Positions 6,777-63,326 of a stretch of 64,000 bases of DNA are shown here, one piece after another. Source of the stretch: an uncultured Methanosarcinales archaeon. Its GTDB lineage: Archaea; Nanobdellota; Nanobdellia; Woesearchaeales; CAYVYK01. The DNA lies in the NCBI GenBank assembly GCA_964455675.1, contig CAYVYK010000002.1:133791-197790 (forward strand), in the 5' to 3' direction. The translations under genes and the position numbers were made by a program. Below the pieces are notes generated by a model that saw only the letters and a program-made list of their open reading frames with translations, made no database searches and had not been told where the DNA came from. Each line of letters opens with the position of its first letter. The first letter of the stretch is position 1.

Positions 6777-7319
6777 TTAGAATTCGATCAGGGAGTATTC
6801 TTTGTACCCTTCTCTTCGCAGCTTTTCCCGTCCGCCAAGGTCGGGTCTGCAGATGATGAAGCAGCATTCAATGACTTCTCCTCCAAGGCGCTCAACAAGA
6901 CTGCACGCGGCAAGCGATGTTCCGCCAGTTGCGAGGAGATCATCGGCGATAAGGATGCGCATCCCTCGATTGATCGCATCAGTGTGAACTTCCATGTATC
7001 CGCGTCCGTACTCAAGGTGGTATGATGCTGATATGACTTCAGCGGGCAGTTTTCCGCGCTTTCGGAACGGAATGAATCCTGCCCCAAGCGCGTATGCAAG
7101 CGCCGACGCCGTGATGAATCCTCGTGATTCGATCCCGACAACGGCGTCAATCTTCATGGTTTTGTAGCGATCTGCGAGAGCTTTGGTCATGATGTGAAAG
7201 CCCTGCGGATCCTTGAGAAGCGTTGTGATGTCCTGGAATGCAACCCCTTTTTTGGGCCATCCCTTGATCGTACGGACAAGAGATTTCATGTACTTCACTT
7301 GCGCTTTGGTTGCGTCCAT
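6777..7319 (-). CDS. apt: Adenine phosphoribosyltransferase
   Basis: WPKKGVAFQDITTLL, GIESRGF, RKRGKLP, PRPP-binding loop IADDLLATGGT; start set at MDATK. Confidence 0.95.
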   Translation of the reverse strand: MDATKAQVKYMKSLVRTIKGWPKKGVAFQDITTLLKDPQGFHIMTKALADRYKTMKIDAVVGIESRGFITASALAYALGAGFIPFRKRGKLPAEVISASYHLEYGRGYMEVHTDAINRGMRILIADDLLATGGTSLAACSLVERLGGEVIECCFIICRPDLGGREKLRREGYKEYSLIEF

Positions 7320-7371
7320 GGATCTCTTGTCCAGAGCACGTTTTATATAGTTTTCCATCAATGAGGGAATT

Positions 7372-7821
7372 ATGGCATGCAAGTTTTGCGATTTTGCGAG
7401 CGGAAAAAGTTCTGTCCATGCGACCGGGTATCCGTTTATTGCACTTCACAAGACGAGGAATACGGTGTCATTTCTGTCGCAGGATATTCCCGAGCATGAG
7501 AACAGCCATATCCTGGTAATTCCAAAAAAGCATTATACCAAGCTCGAGGACCTTCCAAAGAGTCTGCTCCATGAGATTATGGATCATGTCGCTCTTGCCG
7601 CACGTGTCACGAAAAGGACGCACAAGGGATGCAATATCCTCGTGAATGAGGGTTCATGCGCACAGCAGTTTGTTCCCCATGTTCATGTGCATATCATTCC
7701 AAGGGACAAGCACGACCGTATCACCATCGAGAAATTCAAGAAGAAGCGCATGACGATCAAGCAGTTTCTCATGATGCATGAAAAGGTAAAAGCCGAGTTC
7801 AGCACATCGAAGCGCAAGTGA
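7372..7821 (+). CDS. HIT family nucleotide hydrolase
   Basis: N-terminal CKFC, HILVIPKKH, histidine triad HVHVHII. Confidence 0.93.
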   Translation: MACKFCDFASGKSSVHATGYPFIALHKTRNTVSFLSQDIPEHENSHILVIPKKHYTKLEDLPKSLLHEIMDHVALAARVTKRTHKGCNILVNEGSCAQQFVPHVHVHIIPRDKHDRITIEKFKKKRMTIKQFLMMHEKVKAEFSTSKRK

Positions 7822-8024
7822 TTCGATTTTTTATGAGTGCCATCGGGATGGTGGTTAAGTTTCAAGCTACCATGATACGAGCACAATAGTCATAGTCGGT
7901 TCCAACGCTGGAACCCTCCATGCGAGTACTACCCCGTGTTGTGGATCACTAAAGAACAAGATCTGCGTGTAGATAACAACTCCGGGAAATAATTCAAATA
8001 CAAAGCACGTCCATCCACCACGCT

Positions 8025-8313
8025 GCACAAAGGCATCATTCTTGCGTAGCAATGAAGATGCCGACCGATCCCCACCGACCAACGGGAGGTGGACCGTCCG
8101 ACAATGGTGTTATGACTCTATGCCGATGAGAGTTGATACCTATGTCATATATAGAGATATGTCACGCACAAAGGCATCATTCTTGCGTAGCAATGAAGAT
8201 GCCGACCGATCCCACCGACCAACGGGAGGTGGACCGTCCTACGATCTTAAGAATAAACAGAGAGCACGAGAGCATAGGACAATATATTTGACGGGAGGTG
8301 GACCGTCCTACGA
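8025..8313. repeat. Direct repeats of a ~75-bp structured element (8025-8099, 8166-8239; 3' fragment 8291-8313)
   Basis: Copies 1 and 2 differ by one C indel; ACGGGAGGTGGACCGTCC occurs three times; two hairpins per copy. Confidence 0.92.
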
Positions 8314-8412
8314 AGAGATAATGATTTCTTTGTCGGATCATGCGTCACAATAGGAGAGGTGAGAAGGTAATTAAACAACATCTTTATATCGTTCTTTTTC
8401 GTACCGTGCAGT

Positions 8413-9255
8413 ATGGAAGGGTTTATTCTGAAACGACCAATGTTTGGGAAGGATGTAGAGATCGTTTTGCAGGATGTCGAGGAATCACTTGGAATGGATA
8501 TCGGCATTCAAGCGTATGAGGAAGGCTTACGGCTCCAGTCCATCTTCAACCTCTATGATAAAAACAGCGAAATCTCGTTGCTCAATAGAAAGAGGGAGCT
8601 TACTGTCTCTCCTGAATTGGCATTCGTCTTGGTTAAAGCAAAGGAGCTTGCTGTCCTCTCAGGTCATGCATACGATGTGAGTCATGGCAGAAGATTTCTC
8701 GCAAGAAAACAGGGTGAGGCTGAACCCATTGTACATTGTACAAGCAATAATATCATCGTGAAGGGACGTAGGGTAGTCCTCGATCACGATGACGTAGTAG
8801 TTGACCTGGGGAGTATTGCCAAAGGCTACATCGTCGACCGTATAGCGGAGATTCTTATCGCCGAGGGAGTGGAAAATGGTCTCGTGAATGGTCGCGGCGA
8901 TATTCGCGTGTTTGGTACGAGCCAGCAGATTGATATCCAGCACCCTCGAAAAGACGCATGTATCTCCACCATAAATCTAGTAAACGCGGGTGTTGCAACA
9001 TCCGGTGATTATATGCAGTATCACGGTTCGCACAGCAACTCACATATTGTTGGACAAACCGACGCAGTATCAGTGACGGTTGTCGCCAAATCAGCCATGA
9101 TAGCGGACGCGATGGCGACAGTATTGTCGGTGATCACGCCGGCGAATCGTGAGGTGATCCTCGGGAAGTTCCCTGGAATTAGGGCGTTCATCGTTGACAC
9201 GAAATTGCGGTCCACATGTTTCAATTCGTTTGACAAGTTGGTGATGAGTCCATGA
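8413..9255 (+). CDS. apbE: FAD:protein FMN transferase (ApbE family), no obvious signal peptide
   Basis: SEISLLN, DLGSIAKGYIVD, VNGRGDI, IQHP, VATSGDY, SVTVVA..AMIADAMAT. Confidence 0.92.
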   Translation: MEGFILKRPMFGKDVEIVLQDVEESLGMDIGIQAYEEGLRLQSIFNLYDKNSEISLLNRKRELTVSPELAFVLVKAKELAVLSGHAYDVSHGRRFLARKQGEAEPIVHCTSNNIIVKGRRVVLDHDDVVVDLGSIAKGYIVDRIAEILIAEGVENGLVNGRGDIRVFGTSQQIDIQHPRKDACISTINLVNAGVATSGDYMQYHGSHSNSHIVGQTDAVSVTVVAKSAMIADAMATVLSVITPANREVILGKFPGIRAFIVDTKLRSTCFNSFDKLVMSP

Positions 9256-10550
9256 GAAAATTGCAGTACCTCGGATGGGGCGGTATCATCGTACTATGCC
9301 TGATTCCAGTCGCATTGTTGTTGAATGGACCTGCGTCAGGGTATGATCTGACCTATGGCAATCTCACACACATTTTTGGCCAGATCGCCGCCCTTGTCGG
9401 CTTGACGTTATTTGCTCTTGCGCTTCTCCTTGCGACCCGTTTCCGGGGGTTTGAAGACCTATTTGGCGGGCTTGACAAGGTGTACCGTGTCCATGCGATT
9501 ATCGGAGCGTTGTCACTCTGCATGCTTCTTCTCCATCCGATACTGCTCGTGATAAAATTCATTCCAAGTGACATATCTCGTGCAGCGATCTATCTACTGC
9601 CTGGAACGTACTGGTCCGTAAATTTTGGTTTTATTGCTCTCTTTGGATTGCTCCTTCTCATATTCATAACATTATTTACAGGCGTCAGGTACAATTACTG
9701 GAAGATCAGCCACACATTTCTTGGTATTGTATTCATCATCGCAACATTCCACGTGCTCATGGTAAGTGACGCCGCCCGTGATCCTGGTATATTCCCAGGG
9801 TATTTCATCTTCGCGAGCGCCATGGCGATTCTTGGTATATCATCATTTTTGGTTGTTCTATGGAACAAGCTTGCGCCAGGGTATCAGTACCAGATTGAGT
9901 CTATTAAACACGTCGGCGATCACATCGTTGATATCAAGCTTCGACCCCTTGGTAAACCGATGAGGTACCATGCTGGGCAATTTGCCATGCTGGAATTTCG
10001 AAATGCTGGATTGCCGACGGAATATCATCCTTTCTCGATTGCATCAGCAACAGATGCGAAGGATATACGCTGCGTCATTAAGGATCTTGGTGATTACACA
10101 GCAGGCCTAACAGTATTGCAGCCGGGCGATCGAGTAGCAGTCAAGGGCCCGTTTGGCCGCTTTCCTTCCTCGAATGGATCTTCACACCAGATATGGATCG
10201 CTGGAGGGATTGGCATCACTCCGTTCCTCGGAATGGCCGAAGATTTGCTTGGTGGCAAGAATCAGAGGGGGAGGATTGATCTCTATTATTGCGTTGCTTC
10301 GGCCGATCAGCTCATATCGCTTGAGCGACTGCGCCAGATCGAACGGCAGACTCCTGGATTTCACATCATACCATGGGTGAGCTCAAAGCAAGGTCGCCTC
10401 ACGTTAAACGCCATCAAATCGCTGGACATGCGTGATCTAGAAGTTTTTTTGTGCGGTCCAGAAAGTCTTAAGAATGCAATGCGTGATGCTTTCAGATCCG
10501 CGGGATTGTCAAGGTCTCACATTCACGCGGAGGAGTTTAGTTTCCGATGA
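9252..10550 (+). CDS. Ferric-reductase-like TM domain fused to FAD/NAD(P)-binding (FNR-type) oxidoreductase
   Basis: About 6 TM with putative heme His residues (GLDKVYRVH, LLLHP, WKISH, TFH); HPFSIAS, GPFGRF, IAGGIGITPF, FLCGP, HAEEFSFR. Confidence 0.93.
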   Translation: MRKLQYLGWGGIIVLCLIPVALLLNGPASGYDLTYGNLTHIFGQIAALVGLTLFALALLLATRFRGFEDLFGGLDKVYRVHAIIGALSLCMLLLHPILLVIKFIPSDISRAAIYLLPGTYWSVNFGFIALFGLLLLIFITLFTGVRYNYWKISHTFLGIVFIIATFHVLMVSDAARDPGIFPGYFIFASAMAILGISSFLVVLWNKLAPGYQYQIESIKHVGDHIVDIKLRPLGKPMRYHAGQFAMLEFRNAGLPTEYHPFSIASATDAKDIRCVIKDLGDYTAGLTVLQPGDRVAVKGPFGRFPSSNGSSHQIWIAGGIGITPFLGMAEDLLGGKNQRGRIDLYYCVASADQLISLERLRQIERQTPGFHIIPWVSSKQGRLTLNAIKSLDMRDLEVFLCGPESLKNAMRDAFRSAGLSRSHIHAEEFSFR

Positions 10551-15281: not shown

Positions 15282-15914
15282 CTAGTGCTTCTTTCTGCGC
15301 CGATGCATAAAATGCCGGTAACTCAAGAAGACGCATGCCGCAACGAGAAGCAGTGCAACTGCAATGGACAAAGGCTCAGTATAATGCCGCACGAGGTCCC
15401 AGTTCTTGCCGAGAAGGTATCCGAGGTATGCAAGGAATGTGTTCCACGCTGTTGCGCCAATGACGGTGTACGCGCTGAACTTGAGGAGGTCCATTTTTCC
15501 AATCCCTGCGGGGATCGATATAAGGTGGCGGACAACGGGGATGAGTCTCCCGATCAGAATGGTGATTTCTCCCCTCTTCATAAACCACTGTTCAGTCTTC
15601 CGCAGGTCCTCTTCATCAAGGAGCAGGTATTTTCCGAATCGTGTGACGAGCCTGTTGCCGCCAAAGTAACCGATATAGTATGACAAGAGTGACCCAACGA
15701 GACTGCCGAGCGTGCTTGCTATGATCACGAAGAGCATGCTTAATTCACCCCGTGATGCAGCAAATCCAGCAAATGGCATGACAAGTTCAGAGGGCATTGG
15801 GAAAATCATGCTCTCGAGGACCATGAGGATGAAGACGCCTGCGTACCCCATTTGAGTGATCAGATCTATGGAGAACGATCCTATCATCCCGAGTATTCCA
15901 GCGATAGCTGACAT
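15282..15914 (-). CDS. dedA: DedA family membrane protein
   Basis: LESMIFPMPSELVMPFAG, GRLIPVVRHLISIPAG. Confidence 0.93.
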   Translation of the reverse strand: MSAIAGILGMIGSFSIDLITQMGYAGVFILMVLESMIFPMPSELVMPFAGFAASRGELSMLFVIIASTLGSLVGSLLSYYIGYFGGNRLVTRFGKYLLLDEEDLRKTEQWFMKRGEITILIGRLIPVVRHLISIPAGIGKMDLLKFSAYTVIGATAWNTFLAYLGYLLGKNWDLVRHYTEPLSIAVALLLVAACVFLSYRHFMHRRRKKH

Positions 15915-35800: not shown

Positions 35801-38402
35801 CATCTTTCACGTATATTCCTAGTCCTGCGTTTGAGAATGAAACAAATGTTGTTGGATTCCCCGGATCAATGGTTGATGCATTGGGATATCCTGAGTAGTA
35901 ATAGTTGAGCCATGGTGCTTGCGCGTTGACGTCGATGTAGAAAGGGATTCCCACATCTTCTGACATCTTGTTTGTGATCCTGTCCTCTACGCTGATTCGG
36001 TCTGTGAGGATGTCGATCGTTCGTTCAATCCTGTAGTAGGTTCCTTCGCCAATGACAGTTCGATGATTCTCATCACCAGTGATGGTCACAGCCCATGTTG
36101 GTTCAGCACTGCCAGGTATTGGATTTCCGAGATGGTTTCTTGGATGGGCGGCCTCGATCCGCGGGTGATAGTAGTACGAGTCAAGATGCACGGTGTTTCC
36201 GTTGACAGTGATTGTTATTCTCCCGTTATCGCTAACGGATAGAGAGTACGGAACTGGGAACTCATACTCTGGCCGGATGATTCCGGCATCATCATCTTGC
36301 AGTCCGTCCTCATCGGAATCAGAATCGAGTGGATCGTTATGGCTGAGGTACTCGTCATAGTTGTGCATCTCGTCACCGTCGGGATCATCAGTAAATCCGT
36401 AGATGAGAGATCCGAAGCTGCTGAGCTCCCAGTTGTCAGGAAGACCATCTATATCGACATCAATGTCGGAAGGACAGCAGTCCTGGATGCAGGTAAACTC
36501 ATCTTCTCCTGATTCGCATATGCCATTGCCGCATATTGATGACATCCCTGAGCCCACTTGTCGTGTCAAGGAAGTGATATCCCCAACATAATCGTTCCTA
36601 ATGGTGAGAGTTACTGTATATGTTCCGGGATTTGCATACAGATGGCTAATGATCATTCCGCTCCCTTGCGTTCCATCTCCAAAATCCCATTCGTATTCGA
36701 GGATGGGTCCGCGTCCGGGGGTGCTTTCTGACGCATCAAACAATACCTCATGGGTCTCACTCACCGTTGCACTAAATGATGCTCTTAGATCGCCAAGACG
36801 CTGCTCAACAATGAGACTTTTCCAGTCCTCCATCGTCAATCCGTTCTGATAGTCGAGGGTGTTCTCACGCACGTCAGAGTAGGTGTAGAACATGAGGTTT
36901 TTTGCCCCAAGCCATTTGTGAAGGTTAATCTCTTGGCGCATTTCCTCTGCCGTTGGCAGGCGAAAATCTCCCCATTCAAACGCCTGCACCACAGGTTCGA
37001 TGTCGATTCCGTCTGGTGCAGAGTACTGAGCGACTGTTGCGTAATTGTTTTCGATGCGTTCAGGATAGCTTCCGCCGACTCTCCATGGGTACACGTACAT
37101 GGCAAGCTGATCCTGATGTGTGTAATCCACGGTACCCGGAAGCAACCATAGAGACTCGGCAAGCATTGACGATCCAATAGCGTAAATAATTGGGCGGGTA
37201 GTGTCAGCGTCATACGCGCGTACGACACTTTCCACGATCTGTGCAAGGCCTCGATAGTCTGTCTCAAAATAAAACGCTGGTGGATCGTCGATAGAGTAAT
37301 ATGCTAAGATCGCATCCTTGATTGTATCTTGGGATAAATATTCCATCTCTTCTATGAGACGTTCCTTGTTCACGGGAACGCTGCCGATCGCGTGCGTTTC
37401 GGGTGCTGTACCCTCGCATCCGCGGATGACGTTCGAAAACGTGAACCGATAGTATGTGGAACCATGCGCTGAGAATGGTTCCGCTTCCGGCAAGATGGAA
37501 AACTGCATGCACTCATCATCAAGCCACAGGGTTTTGTACGAGGGATCGTCATACTGCGAGTTGATGAACCATCCAAATGTTGTGCTTGCCTTACCAATAA
37601 ATGATAGGGTGGTTGCTGTGTCGCTAATGTCCTCCTCGAGGACTCCGCCATGGTATGGTAAGGTTACCCATAGTTTCTGTTTGTTTGCGCGCAGTGTCTG
37701 TCCTGACACGTGTGTTGGGTCGAGCATTTCCCTGCTGTTTCCTGGGTCATAGAATTGCAGCCCAGTAAACCCATACTCCGCTGCGTTGTTGGAGCACTCG
37801 GCCATTCGTTCATATGGCTCGCCTCCCTCCGCGCATTCGTCCATCGTGAATATCCCTTTGTATCCCCAAATGTACGGAGGACAGTCTTCCGGACAGTTCA
37901 AGTGGTCTTCATCCTTGTCGCACGCTCCGTTGCCGCACATCTCCCCATCCATGATGGTTAGGTCTTCATTTTCCGGGGGTTCCTCGTCATTGCGAGGATT
38001 GTCCTCAATACGCTCGCACTCCTGTGTCTCGGTTCGTTGCTCGGATCGTAGTCCACAGTATGTTGTGCTCACGCAGAATCGTTCTTGAATTCCGTTAACA
38101 CATTCTCCCCATTCATCACATGTGTCACTCCGCGCGCAGTCGAGGCACTCCCTGCGTTCCACAGGCTTAAACACGCTGCTTTCGCAGCTATTCACATCCT
38201 TGCATTCGCGGAACTGCATCGTTTTCTCGCACGCTGTCCAGTCGGTGCATACCCATCGTTCCTGGCATGATGTCGCATAGTCCCGGGTATCCTTTACTGA
38301 CATTGCGGCAGGCGCAAAGGTTGTGCATGATCCGATAATGAGAAGGGCAAGGAAGCCTATCAGTGCAACTACAAACGCTCTGCCATTCCCCCTATGCTTC
38401 AT
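29874..38402 (-). CDS. Giant (2842 aa) membrane-anchored surface protein: Cys-rich linkers, PKD domain, beta-helix, several putative glycoside-hydrolase-like domains
   Basis: Signal peptide; many CGxGxC...CPxDC repeats; PKD YEWDFGDG..HLYANPGTYTVTLT; DxDGD Ca-binding motifs; beta-helix after GGVITIPPGRY; C-terminal TM and 'GW' tail. Confidence 0.85.
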   Translation of the reverse strand: MKHRGNGRAFVVALIGFLALLIIGSCTTFAPAAMSVKDTRDYATSCQERWVCTDWTACEKTMQFRECKDVNSCESSVFKPVERRECLDCARSDTCDEWGECVNGIQERFCVSTTYCGLRSEQRTETQECERIEDNPRNDEEPPENEDLTIMDGEMCGNGACDKDEDHLNCPEDCPPYIWGYKGIFTMDECAEGGEPYERMAECSNNAAEYGFTGLQFYDPGNSREMLDPTHVSGQTLRANKQKLWVTLPYHGGVLEEDISDTATTLSFIGKASTTFGWFINSQYDDPSYKTLWLDDECMQFSILPEAEPFSAHGSTYYRFTFSNVIRGCEGTAPETHAIGSVPVNKERLIEEMEYLSQDTIKDAILAYYSIDDPPAFYFETDYRGLAQIVESVVRAYDADTTRPIIYAIGSSMLAESLWLLPGTVDYTHQDQLAMYVYPWRVGGSYPERIENNYATVAQYSAPDGIDIEPVVQAFEWGDFRLPTAEEMRQEINLHKWLGAKNLMFYTYSDVRENTLDYQNGLTMEDWKSLIVEQRLGDLRASFSATVSETHEVLFDASESTPGRGPILEYEWDFGDGTQGSGMIISHLYANPGTYTVTLTIRNDYVGDITSLTRQVGSGMSSICGNGICESGEDEFTCIQDCCPSDIDVDIDGLPDNWELSSFGSLIYGFTDDPDGDEMHNYDEYLSHNDPLDSDSDEDGLQDDDAGIIRPEYEFPVPYSLSVSDNGRITITVNGNTVHLDSYYYHPRIEAAHPRNHLGNPIPGSAEPTWAVTITGDENHRTVIGEGTYYRIERTIDILTDRISVEDRITNKMSEDVGIPFYIDVNAQAPWLNYYYSGYPNASTIDPGNPTTFVSFSNAGLGIYVKDDVFRTQVGGGRNPNLWDRFMRINNEYFGLGAQDTYTVVWEIYPLSSPDYYDFINVLRYHINFNYPIQNMVALGYPSPNSWANKEIPERTLLFDSLSTEQALSQPSSSRHGPALWEPEVPADIASFIQNIFIGKVDETGLDIKQLLYIDLFLSSETDTEQYPDSKIINEQGEHAAYTTGVYGYFPTTTNSFGQKMQEFKTEYIDRFNLDGIYFDESTHSISRFTYAPEYWDGHSFQNNPVEGAIVKRIGNIILLSNDYRVNYVTELLGENLNAAANYPPITRSFSALPIERFGEVGCLNYANTLSRMHLTSPIIYNTDEVNDDSRYIHAALHFGGLHYFSTQHISELYQQSDIYQRIYPITPIAIYDGTIIGDTRIITSKRGYFGWGDTSGMTIHTYAWNGVPSPIPTEIVTMNGASYVHIQSNPGIVIIERSSGCGNGVCDAFESHSTCPTDCEPICGDSICSIAETPETCQADCPTVCGDEYCINPEDYASCPHDCTLQCGDGICEVGETTWNCEADCPVDVYIEQRLAEAEQKEDMRDTVIALRESQQPWNDGEDYGPTLRAMIAALPPSGGVITIPPGRYYLSTYTSINKDNVIIKSGELGQVILEAHGIGDDMIEVLERNGVKFQNIIFYGDKDKDHVGLYMRGRNLEVSNSVFINFDWSFYVSATASYTSKHINVTGNYFFDNNYYTLRVGGARFPALPSCERKLENITISGNYLSGTYQGINLLCVFNATIYNNIARNVNISGVRVETSQGVRIIHNLFFENHLVGINLYGYTYNATLIDNIAIDNNKLDRPYYYDCWSPQQSIEDDYMDNRPGFVHYPYLRTENGYPIFTNYWCQSNGMEVELRNNQVNHTFYHNIIGRYESIYTSTPYDMRISYYPQMYEVRSMYLSEKNYFIENYFINSGPERIKDQACDDVYVGNKIVTFTPYEITDLEFTPPGQILCEFERPCTGPATRCDVCDEDGTCEYVDGENNNNCEVDCPDIPYGGLGQRRFNDNCAPGLTKTELIFPARPGCINYYDGSFYCTACGNGNCEPHETNCNCPNDCPAYCGDLLCGEGEKLANCPQDCAEGDISFQIMLQNRDTLIYSPDTIPAQFDDDYVTAIISGSDGIYTLSLTPKVPIRSVWFPYEEDERILDPYGSEGNIIQMVRLGIAHRVADLDDEWLGSVRGFNATYPGQVSAPILIHYNENKARMVAAQNWPPKPVTPLYRKNRMALQYNFTHHVGTSYQYSALIRNYNMNAGIAAWQAAADDYKRWLVPNMNSAGLWPIEYPSWMQSANGWIHVPLEMMPQPAADPSLNDVPFDAAELLQRWDLWNDYLPMVQMWGQMSGWRNYYYQDNTPGTGCCLMNRHIHERYLSETTDDLLDFMQTVRNQGGHASFYQRPIYTSQYVPLDDPQTITAPDDGTSETSRQWLETWMQRTTQWGANAYYLDVVGAVYLGDPLWMAQQFLAQTPSHIFPEGNVIEWPVDIYPTAYLTGGSFEGNSHQILGGPGISPGDYENTTFPNVGRYLFDDRIMFIGESNWDHYLWGTVKTMVGTNRALVWDYFLPYCTPEPDLCWYWLERQAFLFGGKFDAWHIEDRYDTPTVLDKIMNRTIEQWDALEWWEREPRYYDTRGISFVSDETMDIRRFVDKNGVHLFTIDNPLKHTEVTIRFHGSMIPITIPDHPGTEEPYEVYIYEASIIPPECDPDIILFPWSSCSNGWMNRSYQDLSGCGGAMPATEQDCSVCGDNVCNGAETHASCPADCLCGNGVCDPLETNALCPADCPAPGGDGDDDSGGGGSGGGGGGGIGGWIPPTPTTTPTCVFNWTCTSWTTCIDGNQTRTCTDSNHCQIGGEVRIEWQSCSGGNVTDTCINGVQDGDEEGIDCGGSCPAPCEQMPLSWNLPVIEVSTTSVYLIPAAIGLCLFAAIILLVIAFHSHKAEKIEHQLIMSELDLYMRKMRSRGFSEKSIRDELHRTGWTDDAIRDQLKRT

Positions 38403-63120: not shown

Positions 63121-63194
63121 CACGCAAAGGATTTTTCTCCCCGAAGAGAAAAAAGCCGTCCGAAACCAGCCGACCAAAGGGAGGCTGACCGTCC
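63121..63194. repeat. Diverged copy of the two-hairpin element at 8025-8239
   Basis: CACGCAAAGG-hairpin-GCCGTCCGA..CAGCCGACCAAAGGGAGGCTGACCGTCC. Confidence 0.8.
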
Positions 63195-63326
63195 CACTCT
63201 ACTTCCATTGAGAAGGAAGAGATAGTCTCAAATCGCGGATTGATCCTTCTCCGCAACTCCACGAAAACGAGCTTTGTGAGCCCACCAAACGATAGCTTTT
63301 TAAATGGCCTCCTTTTCCTCTGCCGC

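Follow-up and report, generated by a model that had tools for sequence, protein, structure and literature searches.

A dispersed family of two-hairpin repeats with near-uniform strand polarity in a Woesearchaeales genome

Hairpin repeats of the REP type, and their single-stranded DNA (ssDNA) enzymes, have been well studied in bacteria but hardly in archaea. The usual substrate of HUH-type nucleases is a hairpin followed by a conserved single-stranded motif, a position that CGTCC occupies in the repeats described here. According to extracts of PMC5027513, the lagging-strand template is the strand from which the insertion sequences IS608 and ISDra2 excise and into which they insert, and the orientation of other IS200/IS605 members in genomes is biased to match. 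Extracts of Quentin et al. 2018 (PMC6006769) indicate that the IS200 type was the sole TnpA-Y1 subclass observed in archaea and that RAYT was not seen there. The CGTC-tagged palindromic repeats of Di Nocera et al. 2013 are described, in extracts of PMC3733652, as having stems of 8-9 bp that begin in A-T pairs, loops of 4-5 nt and a CCA tail, as forming mostly head-to-head dimers and as occurring in five bacterial phyla. Our search of the literature on archaeal and DPANN hairpin repeats found none for Woesearchaeota; two MITE surveys (PMC11602168, PMC13343696) may bear on this point.

We analysed a 64,000-nt stretch of DNA (the window), which is C2:133791-197790 of a 1.72-Mb, 99%-complete genome in 25 contigs (G000). 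The genome carries a full archaeal SSU rRNA and is placed in an order of more than 130 families of small genomes. A first-pass annotation had reported two near-identical copies of a two-hairpin element, together with a 3' fragment, upstream of a flavinylation operon, and closer comparison bears this out. The repeat units at 8025-8100 and 8166-8240 are ~75 nt long, contain two hairpins each and are about 96-97% identical. Identity is complete between 8025-8072 and 8166-8213 (48/48 positions) and 94% between 8071-8105 and 8211-8245, with an extra C at 8070 in copy 1; the fragment lies further downstream (Table 1). Hairpin 1 of both copies reads GGCATC-A-TTC(T)TGC-GTA-GCA(A)TGAA-GATGCC, and hairpin 2 reads CCACC-GA-CC-AAC-GG-GA-GGTGG and is followed by ACCGTCC, just as had been annotated. 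The core pattern of the element, CGACCNNNGGGAGNNNGACCGTCC, has three matches in the window against 0 in 100 shuffles, and ssDNA folding of the two copies gives z = -2.3 and -3.5 relative to shuffled sequences.

That the pair might be an assembly artefact had been raised at the outset. In two sludge-metagenome runs, Logan unitigs extend over 7845-8099, 8043-8213 and 8216-8700, and the second of these crosses the unique spacer between the copies with 0 differences. The bridged spacer indicates that the tandem pair is not an artefact of assembly, with the proviso that the assembly may derive from the sample of these runs, which are thus not fully independent. Among the unitigs of three runs there was no joint that skips a copy; one joint 'goes back', but this reflects cross-matching to copies elsewhere in the family. 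Just upstream of copy 1, 7848-7998 is matched without difference by a 151-nt unitig (run X3, depth 2) that comes from another study, of a freshwater metagenome.

Table 1. Features of the repeat family and its surroundings. Positions are those of the window unless a contig is named.
Feature	Position	Strand	Remarks
Accessory upstream module 'B'	7898..7945	+	Hairpin GGTTCCA-ACGC-TGGAACC, then CCCCGTGTTGTGGA
Copy 1, 5' flank motif	8006..8031	+	Family consensus ACGnnCAAnCACGCnCA-GCAAAG; from alignment of family copies
Copy 1, hairpin 1	8032..8062	+	6 bp, bulged A, inner stem, C-GTA-G triloop
Copy 1, hairpin 2	8072..8092	+	Variable 5-bp stem, invariant tandem G.A/A.G, CC/GG, triloop
Copy 1, conserved 3' tail ACCGTCC(G)AC(A)AT	8093..8107	+	
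Unique spacer between copies 1 and 2	8108..8157	+	No repeat detected there; unitig spans spacer
Copy 2, shortened 5' flank motif TGTCACGCACAAA	8158..8172	+	
Copy 2, hairpin 1	8173..8203	+	
Copy 2, hairpin 2	8212..8232	+	
Copy 2, 3' tail ACCGTCCTACGAT	8233..8247	+	
5'-truncated 3' fragment, repeats GACGGGAGGTGGACCGTCCTACGA	8290..8313	+	3' half of hairpin 2 plus ACCGTCCTACGA
Degenerate inverted copy of the element's 5' end, AATGATGCCTTTGT	8320..8333	+	12/14 match, p~0.05
TATA-box-like CTTTATAT	8383..8390	+	~25 nt 5' of ApbE ATG at 8413; read from sequence
ApbE-family flavin transferase gene	8413..9255	+	Pfam PF02424, E=1.8e-41; neighbour, outside element
Third family member in window	63142..63196	+	5'-truncated, without hairpin 1; 44 nt 5' of ribosomal protein S19e gene; pattern match 63171-63194
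~170-nt repeat piece	C4:78344-78511		
~170-nt repeat piece	C4:93207-93380		
~170-nt repeat piece	C19:30590-30687		Contig end
~170-nt repeat piece	C24:1-74		Contig start

The window copies belong to a dispersed family. Looking for further copies, as the first-pass annotation had advised, an iterated nhmmer search of the genome returned 43 matches (28 near-full copies and 15 fragments), which group into 29 intergenic loci on 11 contigs. A covariance model of the family (R1) has 31 matches in the genome, and the core pattern has 25, against 0 for a reversed control. An alignment of 27 copies (A1) yields a consensus in which ACGnnCAAnCACGCnCA-GCAAAG is followed by hairpin 1, CGTCCG, nnn, hairpin 2 and ACCGTCCTAC-GATnnTATnATGA. 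Mean identity among the copies is 75%; the window pair is the youngest and the only young one, and the family may be extinct, given that its copies are otherwise old. The loci are unevenly spread, with eight in 44 kb of contig C4 and none on C3, C7 or C10. Mobility of the family is suggested by this scatter only: reading the flanks of the copies disclosed no target-site duplication, and no empty site or insertion polymorphism was seen.

The genomic settings of the 29 loci are as varied as their positions. They comprise 11 spacers between divergent genes, eight tandem in sense, five tandem in antisense (antisense to both neighbours) and four convergent, and the element is oriented as the next gene at 19-20 of the 29. 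The adjoining genes are unrelated and encode a wyosine synthase, epimerases, S19e, FtsZ, TIM, PTA, Rad50, Spt5, GARS, glycosyltransferases, ApbE and many unknowns. At the loci read from sequence, boxes resembling the archaeal TATA consensus stand between the element and leaderless start codons. Next to the window pair, the TATA-like box precedes the ApbE start codon, which places the ApbE promoter downstream of the repeats. Given the unrelated neighbours, the full range of spacer types and the downstream TATA boxes, the element serves the flavinylation operon neither as a leader nor as a riboswitch; it differs from such elements in having no fixed place in a 5' UTR. The element has no special tie to the ApbE operon, and a false lead, the element as a regulator of flavinylation, is removed. 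The suggestion of the first-pass annotation that the operon may have been acquired finds no echo in its ordinary base composition (GC 0.47-0.52 across 8-13 kb, the same as in the remaining genome). The gene that follows ApbE, at 9252-10550, specifies a membrane domain of the ferric-reductase type joined to FAD- and NAD-binding domains; this NOX/FRE-type architecture is unusual company for a DPANN archaeon.

Partial copies are an integral part of the family. Full copies are often followed, 53-83 nt downstream, by one to three fragments on the same strand; these are nested 5' truncations with the common end GACCGTCCTAC(GAT), and arrays reach at most ~3 units. The shortest, solitary fragments are at C4:112907 and C5:13551. 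In nine of the 12 arrays read, the first fragment has the same letters in its variable stem as the adjacent full copy, which indicates that most fragments arose locally. Some of the 'spacers' within an array are near-identical (at C4_93206 and also on C14) and others are diverged. The repeated insertion that the first-pass annotation had pictured is one way to account for the partial copies; tandem duplication followed by deletion fits them equally well. Runs of N interrupt arrays at C14:~15310-15410 and C14:~35830-35930, with the same array unit on both sides of the gap, and the C14 arrays are probably longer than assembled.

The 5' side varies too. Fragments of the 5' end, ACGnTCAATnACGnnnAGCAAA, lie upstream of some full copies (C9_43948, C14_35719, C8_29147), and hairpin 1 is missing or replaced in C2_109671 and C2_196932. 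Directly 5' of several copies stands a ~170-nt repeat with the hairpin GGTTCGC-TGAC-GCGAACC followed by ACCACCCCCGCGTTGTGGAA; module 'B' of the window is related to it, its similarity being weak (E~0.3-0.9). The missing or replaced hairpin, the 5' fragments and this additional module together show that the family is modular. Pieces of the ~170-nt repeat occur at two contig ends, so that the repeat is a probable cause of assembly breaks. Downstream of the element, its 5' end recurs in inverted form with significance (p~0) in only two of 28 copies, C4_74645 (12/12) and C4_85842, with weaker matches in both window copies.

The alignment gives strong evidence that the hairpins have been maintained. 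RNAalifold recovers both of them, and a 20-pair structure is paired in 95.3% of 533 pair cells. Double changes occur in 10 of the 20 pairs (66 cells), a degree of covariation that 0 of 500 shuffles reach, and sliding the 3' partners by 1-3 columns lowers pairing to 25-47%. Four variable pairs of hairpin 2 appear as CACC/GGTG, AGCC/GGCT, CGGC/GCCG, CTGC/GCAG, GGCC/GGCC and GGGC/GCCC, while the hairpin core GACC...GGGAG, including the tandem G.A, and the ACCGTCC tail are invariant. Among the 27 apices of hairpin 1, 10 are C-GNA-G triloops and 11 are GCG-AA/CA-CGC. The pair cells divide into 504 Watson-Crick, 4 G.T, 3 A.C and 22 other, and such near-pure Watson-Crick pairing, read from the alignment, looks like that of DNA and not of RNA. 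Two features are specific to one strand: the C-GNA-G triloops and the GA/GA core of hairpin 2, which never varies. Extracts of PMC3201870 and PMC13037366 describe d(GNA) triloops, like GCGNAGC mini-hairpins, as very stable in DNA. Nearest-neighbour DNA folding rates the strands equal (-17.0 vs -17.1 kcal/mol) under a model that ignores stabilisation by sheared GA pairs, and the nearest-neighbour energies show no difference between DNA and RNA either.

Several further structures were considered and set aside. A third hairpin, ACCGTC-CTAC-GATGGT, was dropped when its pairing proved not to be kept in other copies. Although ATGATGA follows some copies, they lack the D box of a C/D-box sRNA and the 3-nt bulge of a K-turn. 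For a tRNA-derived element, ARAGORN detects no tRNA beside family copies. The Rfam scan that had been proposed matched no described RNA family at the gathering threshold in the whole window; relaxed to E<=10 over 7000-9500, it gave only an irrelevant snoRNA-like match at 7227-7298.

The copies share an orientation with respect to strand composition. In every contig of the genome the GC skew is uniform, at +/-0.04-0.10, and the AT skew is opposite in sign. We scored polarity against the skew of the local 10 kb, calculated after removing the elements. The strand that carries the GA core and GNA triloops is the strand with G>C and T>A at 27 of the 29 loci (binomial p=1.6e-6); the two exceptions are on the 4-kb contig C24 and at C4_78537. 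Counted by contig, 10/11 agree (p=0.012). Genes of at least 150 aa (621/1213) and tRNAs (15/25) show no bias relative to the skew strand, and the local gene-strand fraction at the loci ranges from 0.11 to 0.91. These observations argue against an effect of gene orientation. As a rule, the strand rich in G and T is the leading-strand sequence, and hence the lagging-strand template, which is left single during replication. From this rule, which is uncalibrated in the present genome, we infer that the GA/GNA strand of the family is the lagging-strand template. The Orc1/Cdc6 gene (C1:172057-172341) lies in uniform skew without a skew switch and is thus uninformative for calibrating an origin. An orientation shared relative to replication suggests that the element spreads as single-stranded DNA.

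A second, unrelated hairpin family in the same genome likewise has 29 loci, none of them in the window (examples are C17:19558-19618, C10:6634-6692 and C11:5090-5149). Its units consist of a GCCCTGTCC-(~20 nt)-GGACAGGGC hairpin, a mini-hairpin GCC-GAA-GGC or GCC-GTCA-GGC, and TAATAAT(T)n, and they are often joined to a GCGGGGAATACTGG...GGTTCCCCAGCCCCTTGTGGAA module. The 3' part of the ~170-nt repeat resembles one of the modules of this second family. The second family is polarised in the same direction at 27/29 loci and on 13/15 contigs.

A linked HUH nuclease or recombinase, which the first-pass annotation had considered, was sought in the whole genome. Y1_Tnp (PF01797) has 0 matches there, with a control that was positive in six of 14 genomes, and neither the TnpB zinc-ribbon domain nor RVT_1 is matched. 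There is no Y2_Tnp match either, a blank that is uninformative because the control was silent in every genome. One tyrosine recombinase is encoded. Y1_Tnp is found in 55 of 150 other genomes of the order, with up to seven matches each, and one relative (G043) carries two 100%-identical 544-nt IS200-like copies with the hairpin CGGGGC-TCT-GCCCCG at both ends. The enzyme class thus exists in the lineage and is absent from the present assembly. Many Woesearchaeales Y1_Tnp open frames are 190-230 aa long (such as G148:C6:24320-24697 and G130:C14:23349-23729), which exceeds the ~150 aa of the IS200 type.

The family itself appears to be restricted to its lineage. Model R1 has 0 matches in 40 genomes (one per family) and 0 in 150 genomes of the order, and the core pattern has 0 in 400 other genomes of the phylum, each at least 90% complete. 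In viral contigs the core pattern has eight single matches, in DNA of ~68% GC, of which three match R1 weakly (E 0.14-0.49); we read these as chance. Wide scans that took in metagenome contigs and all GTDB genomes used the pattern CGACCNNNGGGAGNNNNGACCGTCC, which has one N too many and cannot match the family, so that they are uninformative on its distribution. They returned single, chance-like matches in high-GC bacteria and, besides these, an element family of low GC with 4-N spacing. This latter element, AAAGGGGGCGGGGGG-TTGAC-nn-CGACCGAAGGGAG-nnnn-GACCGTCC, occurs at 12 metagenome loci (L107, L113, L114, L117, L118, L121, L124, L126, L131, L133, L137 and L139). In the form AAAGGGGGCGGGGGG(A)TTGACnnCGACCGAAGGGAGnnnnGACCGTCCG it lies on contigs of ~30% GC, beside TATA-like boxes and gene starts, and two copies are 1.5 kb apart on contig Ga0209086_10000056. 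It has no Rfam match; its core resembles hairpin 2 and the tail of the family, but with one extra base, giving another spacing, and a poor stem. In addition, TTCAATCACG of the family is similar to TTCAATCCG, which starts one hairpin-cassette family of another Woesearchaeota genome, although no sequence match to such families was found.

How does the family compare with described systems? Closest are the ends of IS200/IS605 elements and their non-autonomous derivatives, moved by the 'peel and paste' activity of Y1 HUH TnpA, which likewise have short hairpins beside conserved single-stranded motifs and no coding capacity. They are alike also in that their orientation follows the replication fork and its lagging-strand template (extracts of PMC5027513), the strand identity in our case coming from the skew rule, and in that the Y1 enzyme family is frequent in the same archaeal order. 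However, hairpins 1 and 2 of the family differ in sequence and shape, whereas the LE and RE hairpins of IS200/IS605 are alike; moreover, the genome is without tnpA or tnpB, and the family has many nested partial copies. IS200/IS605 elements insert 3' of a fixed tetra- or pentanucleotide without duplicating it. With bacterial REP, BIME and REPIN-RAYT systems it shares a many-copy, intergenic, species-specific hairpin with compensatory changes and clustered copies. It differs from them in the lack of GTAG at the foot of either hairpin, in clusters that are all direct and not inverted doublets, in the absence of a RAYT from the genome and in a longer unit (75-120 nt) with two unlike hairpins. CGTC-tagged repeats are comparable in their unpaired CGTC-type motif beside a palindrome (here CGTCC follows both hairpins) and in having no dedicated transposase gene. 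Yet none of the stem, loop, tail, dimer or phylum traits given in the extracts of PMC3733652 is found here, and the tag sits on the 3' side of the hairpin, read on the structured strand. As for the terminal inverted repeats and target-site duplication of a classical MITE, the former are significant in two of 28 copies and the latter was not noticed in the flanks that were read.

On balance, we consider it probable that the window copies represent a lineage-specific, non-coding, modular hairpin repeat of the REP or IS200-IS605-MITE kind, selfish and processed as ssDNA at the replication fork. This is in essence the REP/MITE-like ssDNA element proposed by the first-pass annotation, and it is the reading best supported by the 29-locus family, the compensatory covariation and the strand polarity. 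Alternatively, the repeats may not be selfish. They could be a DNA signal kept by the host. Lying on the lagging-strand template, the hairpins could then signal priming, pause or block the fork, act as a recombination site or orient segregation. The equal polarity of two unrelated hairpin families is in line with this, as are the invariance of the GACC-nnn-GGGAG core and ACCGTCC tail beside variable stems and the lack of a detected transposase. Nevertheless, we regard a host signal as unlikely: ~29 loci are few and unevenly distributed, many copies are decayed or truncated, and a core replication signal would be expected to be conserved, whereas the family is absent from the 150 and 400 relatives searched. 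An explanation at the level of RNA seems to us quite improbable as well. The element might be the gene of a small RNA, or it might be transcribed with its neighbours as a leader acting in cis or as a module that binds protein; either would account for the strong covariation and for the majority of loci being oriented as the next gene. Tandem G.A motifs, moreover, are common protein-binding sites in archaeal RNAs. Against this stand the unrelated neighbouring genes, the loci that are convergent or antisense to both neighbours, the TATA-like boxes downstream of the element, the failure to match any Rfam family and the rarity of G.U (4/533 pair cells), together with a polarity that tracks replication skew where genes and tRNAs do not.

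Two explanations remain. One to three partial repeats following full copies at 53-83 nt spacing bring to mind a miniature CRISPR-like or cassette array, with hairpin 1 as leader, repeats of the form GGGAG...ACCGTCCTAC... and ~40-nt spacers. We hold this to be very unlikely, as the supposed spacers of one array often turn out to be copies of each other, whether near-identical or diverged, arrays never exceed ~3 units, the loci are scattered and differ in their repeat letters, and no CRISPR family was found at the Rfam threshold. A local duplication or assembly artefact of no wider meaning might be suspected from the scaffold gaps in some arrays, such as those on C14; with 29 loci on 11 contigs and unitigs that bridge the window pair, it can hardly be entertained.

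Returning to the reading as a selfish ssDNA repeat, a possible sequence of events can be outlined. The unit runs from the 5' motif ACGnnCAATCACGCnCA-GCAAAG through hairpin 1, CGTCCG and hairpin 2, with its invariant tandem G.A core, to ACCGTCCTAC-GATnnTAT. Copying or insertion would take place as ssDNA at the replication fork, and processing there would explain the near-uniform polarity of the copies. Judging from their layout, hairpin 2 and the single-stranded ACCGTCC|TAC may be the recognition and nick module, with ACCGTCC|TAC the likely processing end. Local tandem duplication, accompanied by deletions that hairpins promote, could then give rise to partial copies and arrays. The enzyme, not encoded in the assembled genome, may have been lost, may be unassembled, may be supplied in trans or may be of an unrecognised type. 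More speculatively, and we think this rather doubtful, Woesearchaeales among the DPANN may possess an undescribed ssDNA-moving system, with an enzyme that is not a recognisable Y1 or Y2 HUH, TnpB or RT protein and that writes several unrelated hairpin-cassette families onto the lagging-strand template; or the host may have taken the cassettes over as replication-polar signals. In that scheme, too, recognition and nicking would take place at the GACC-nnn-GGGAG / ACCGTCC core.

For hairpin repeats of Woesearchaeota, the replication polarity appears to be a new property. Two families oriented alike at 27/29 loci each, in a genome whose genes and tRNAs are unbiased, point to replication-coupled processing of ssDNA in a tiny symbiotic archaeon. 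The 25-nt invariant core is a possible bait for the enzyme. The repeats also offer an explanation for contig breaks and gaps in assemblies of this type, and the family provides a polarity marker for the replichores of uncultured DPANN genomes.
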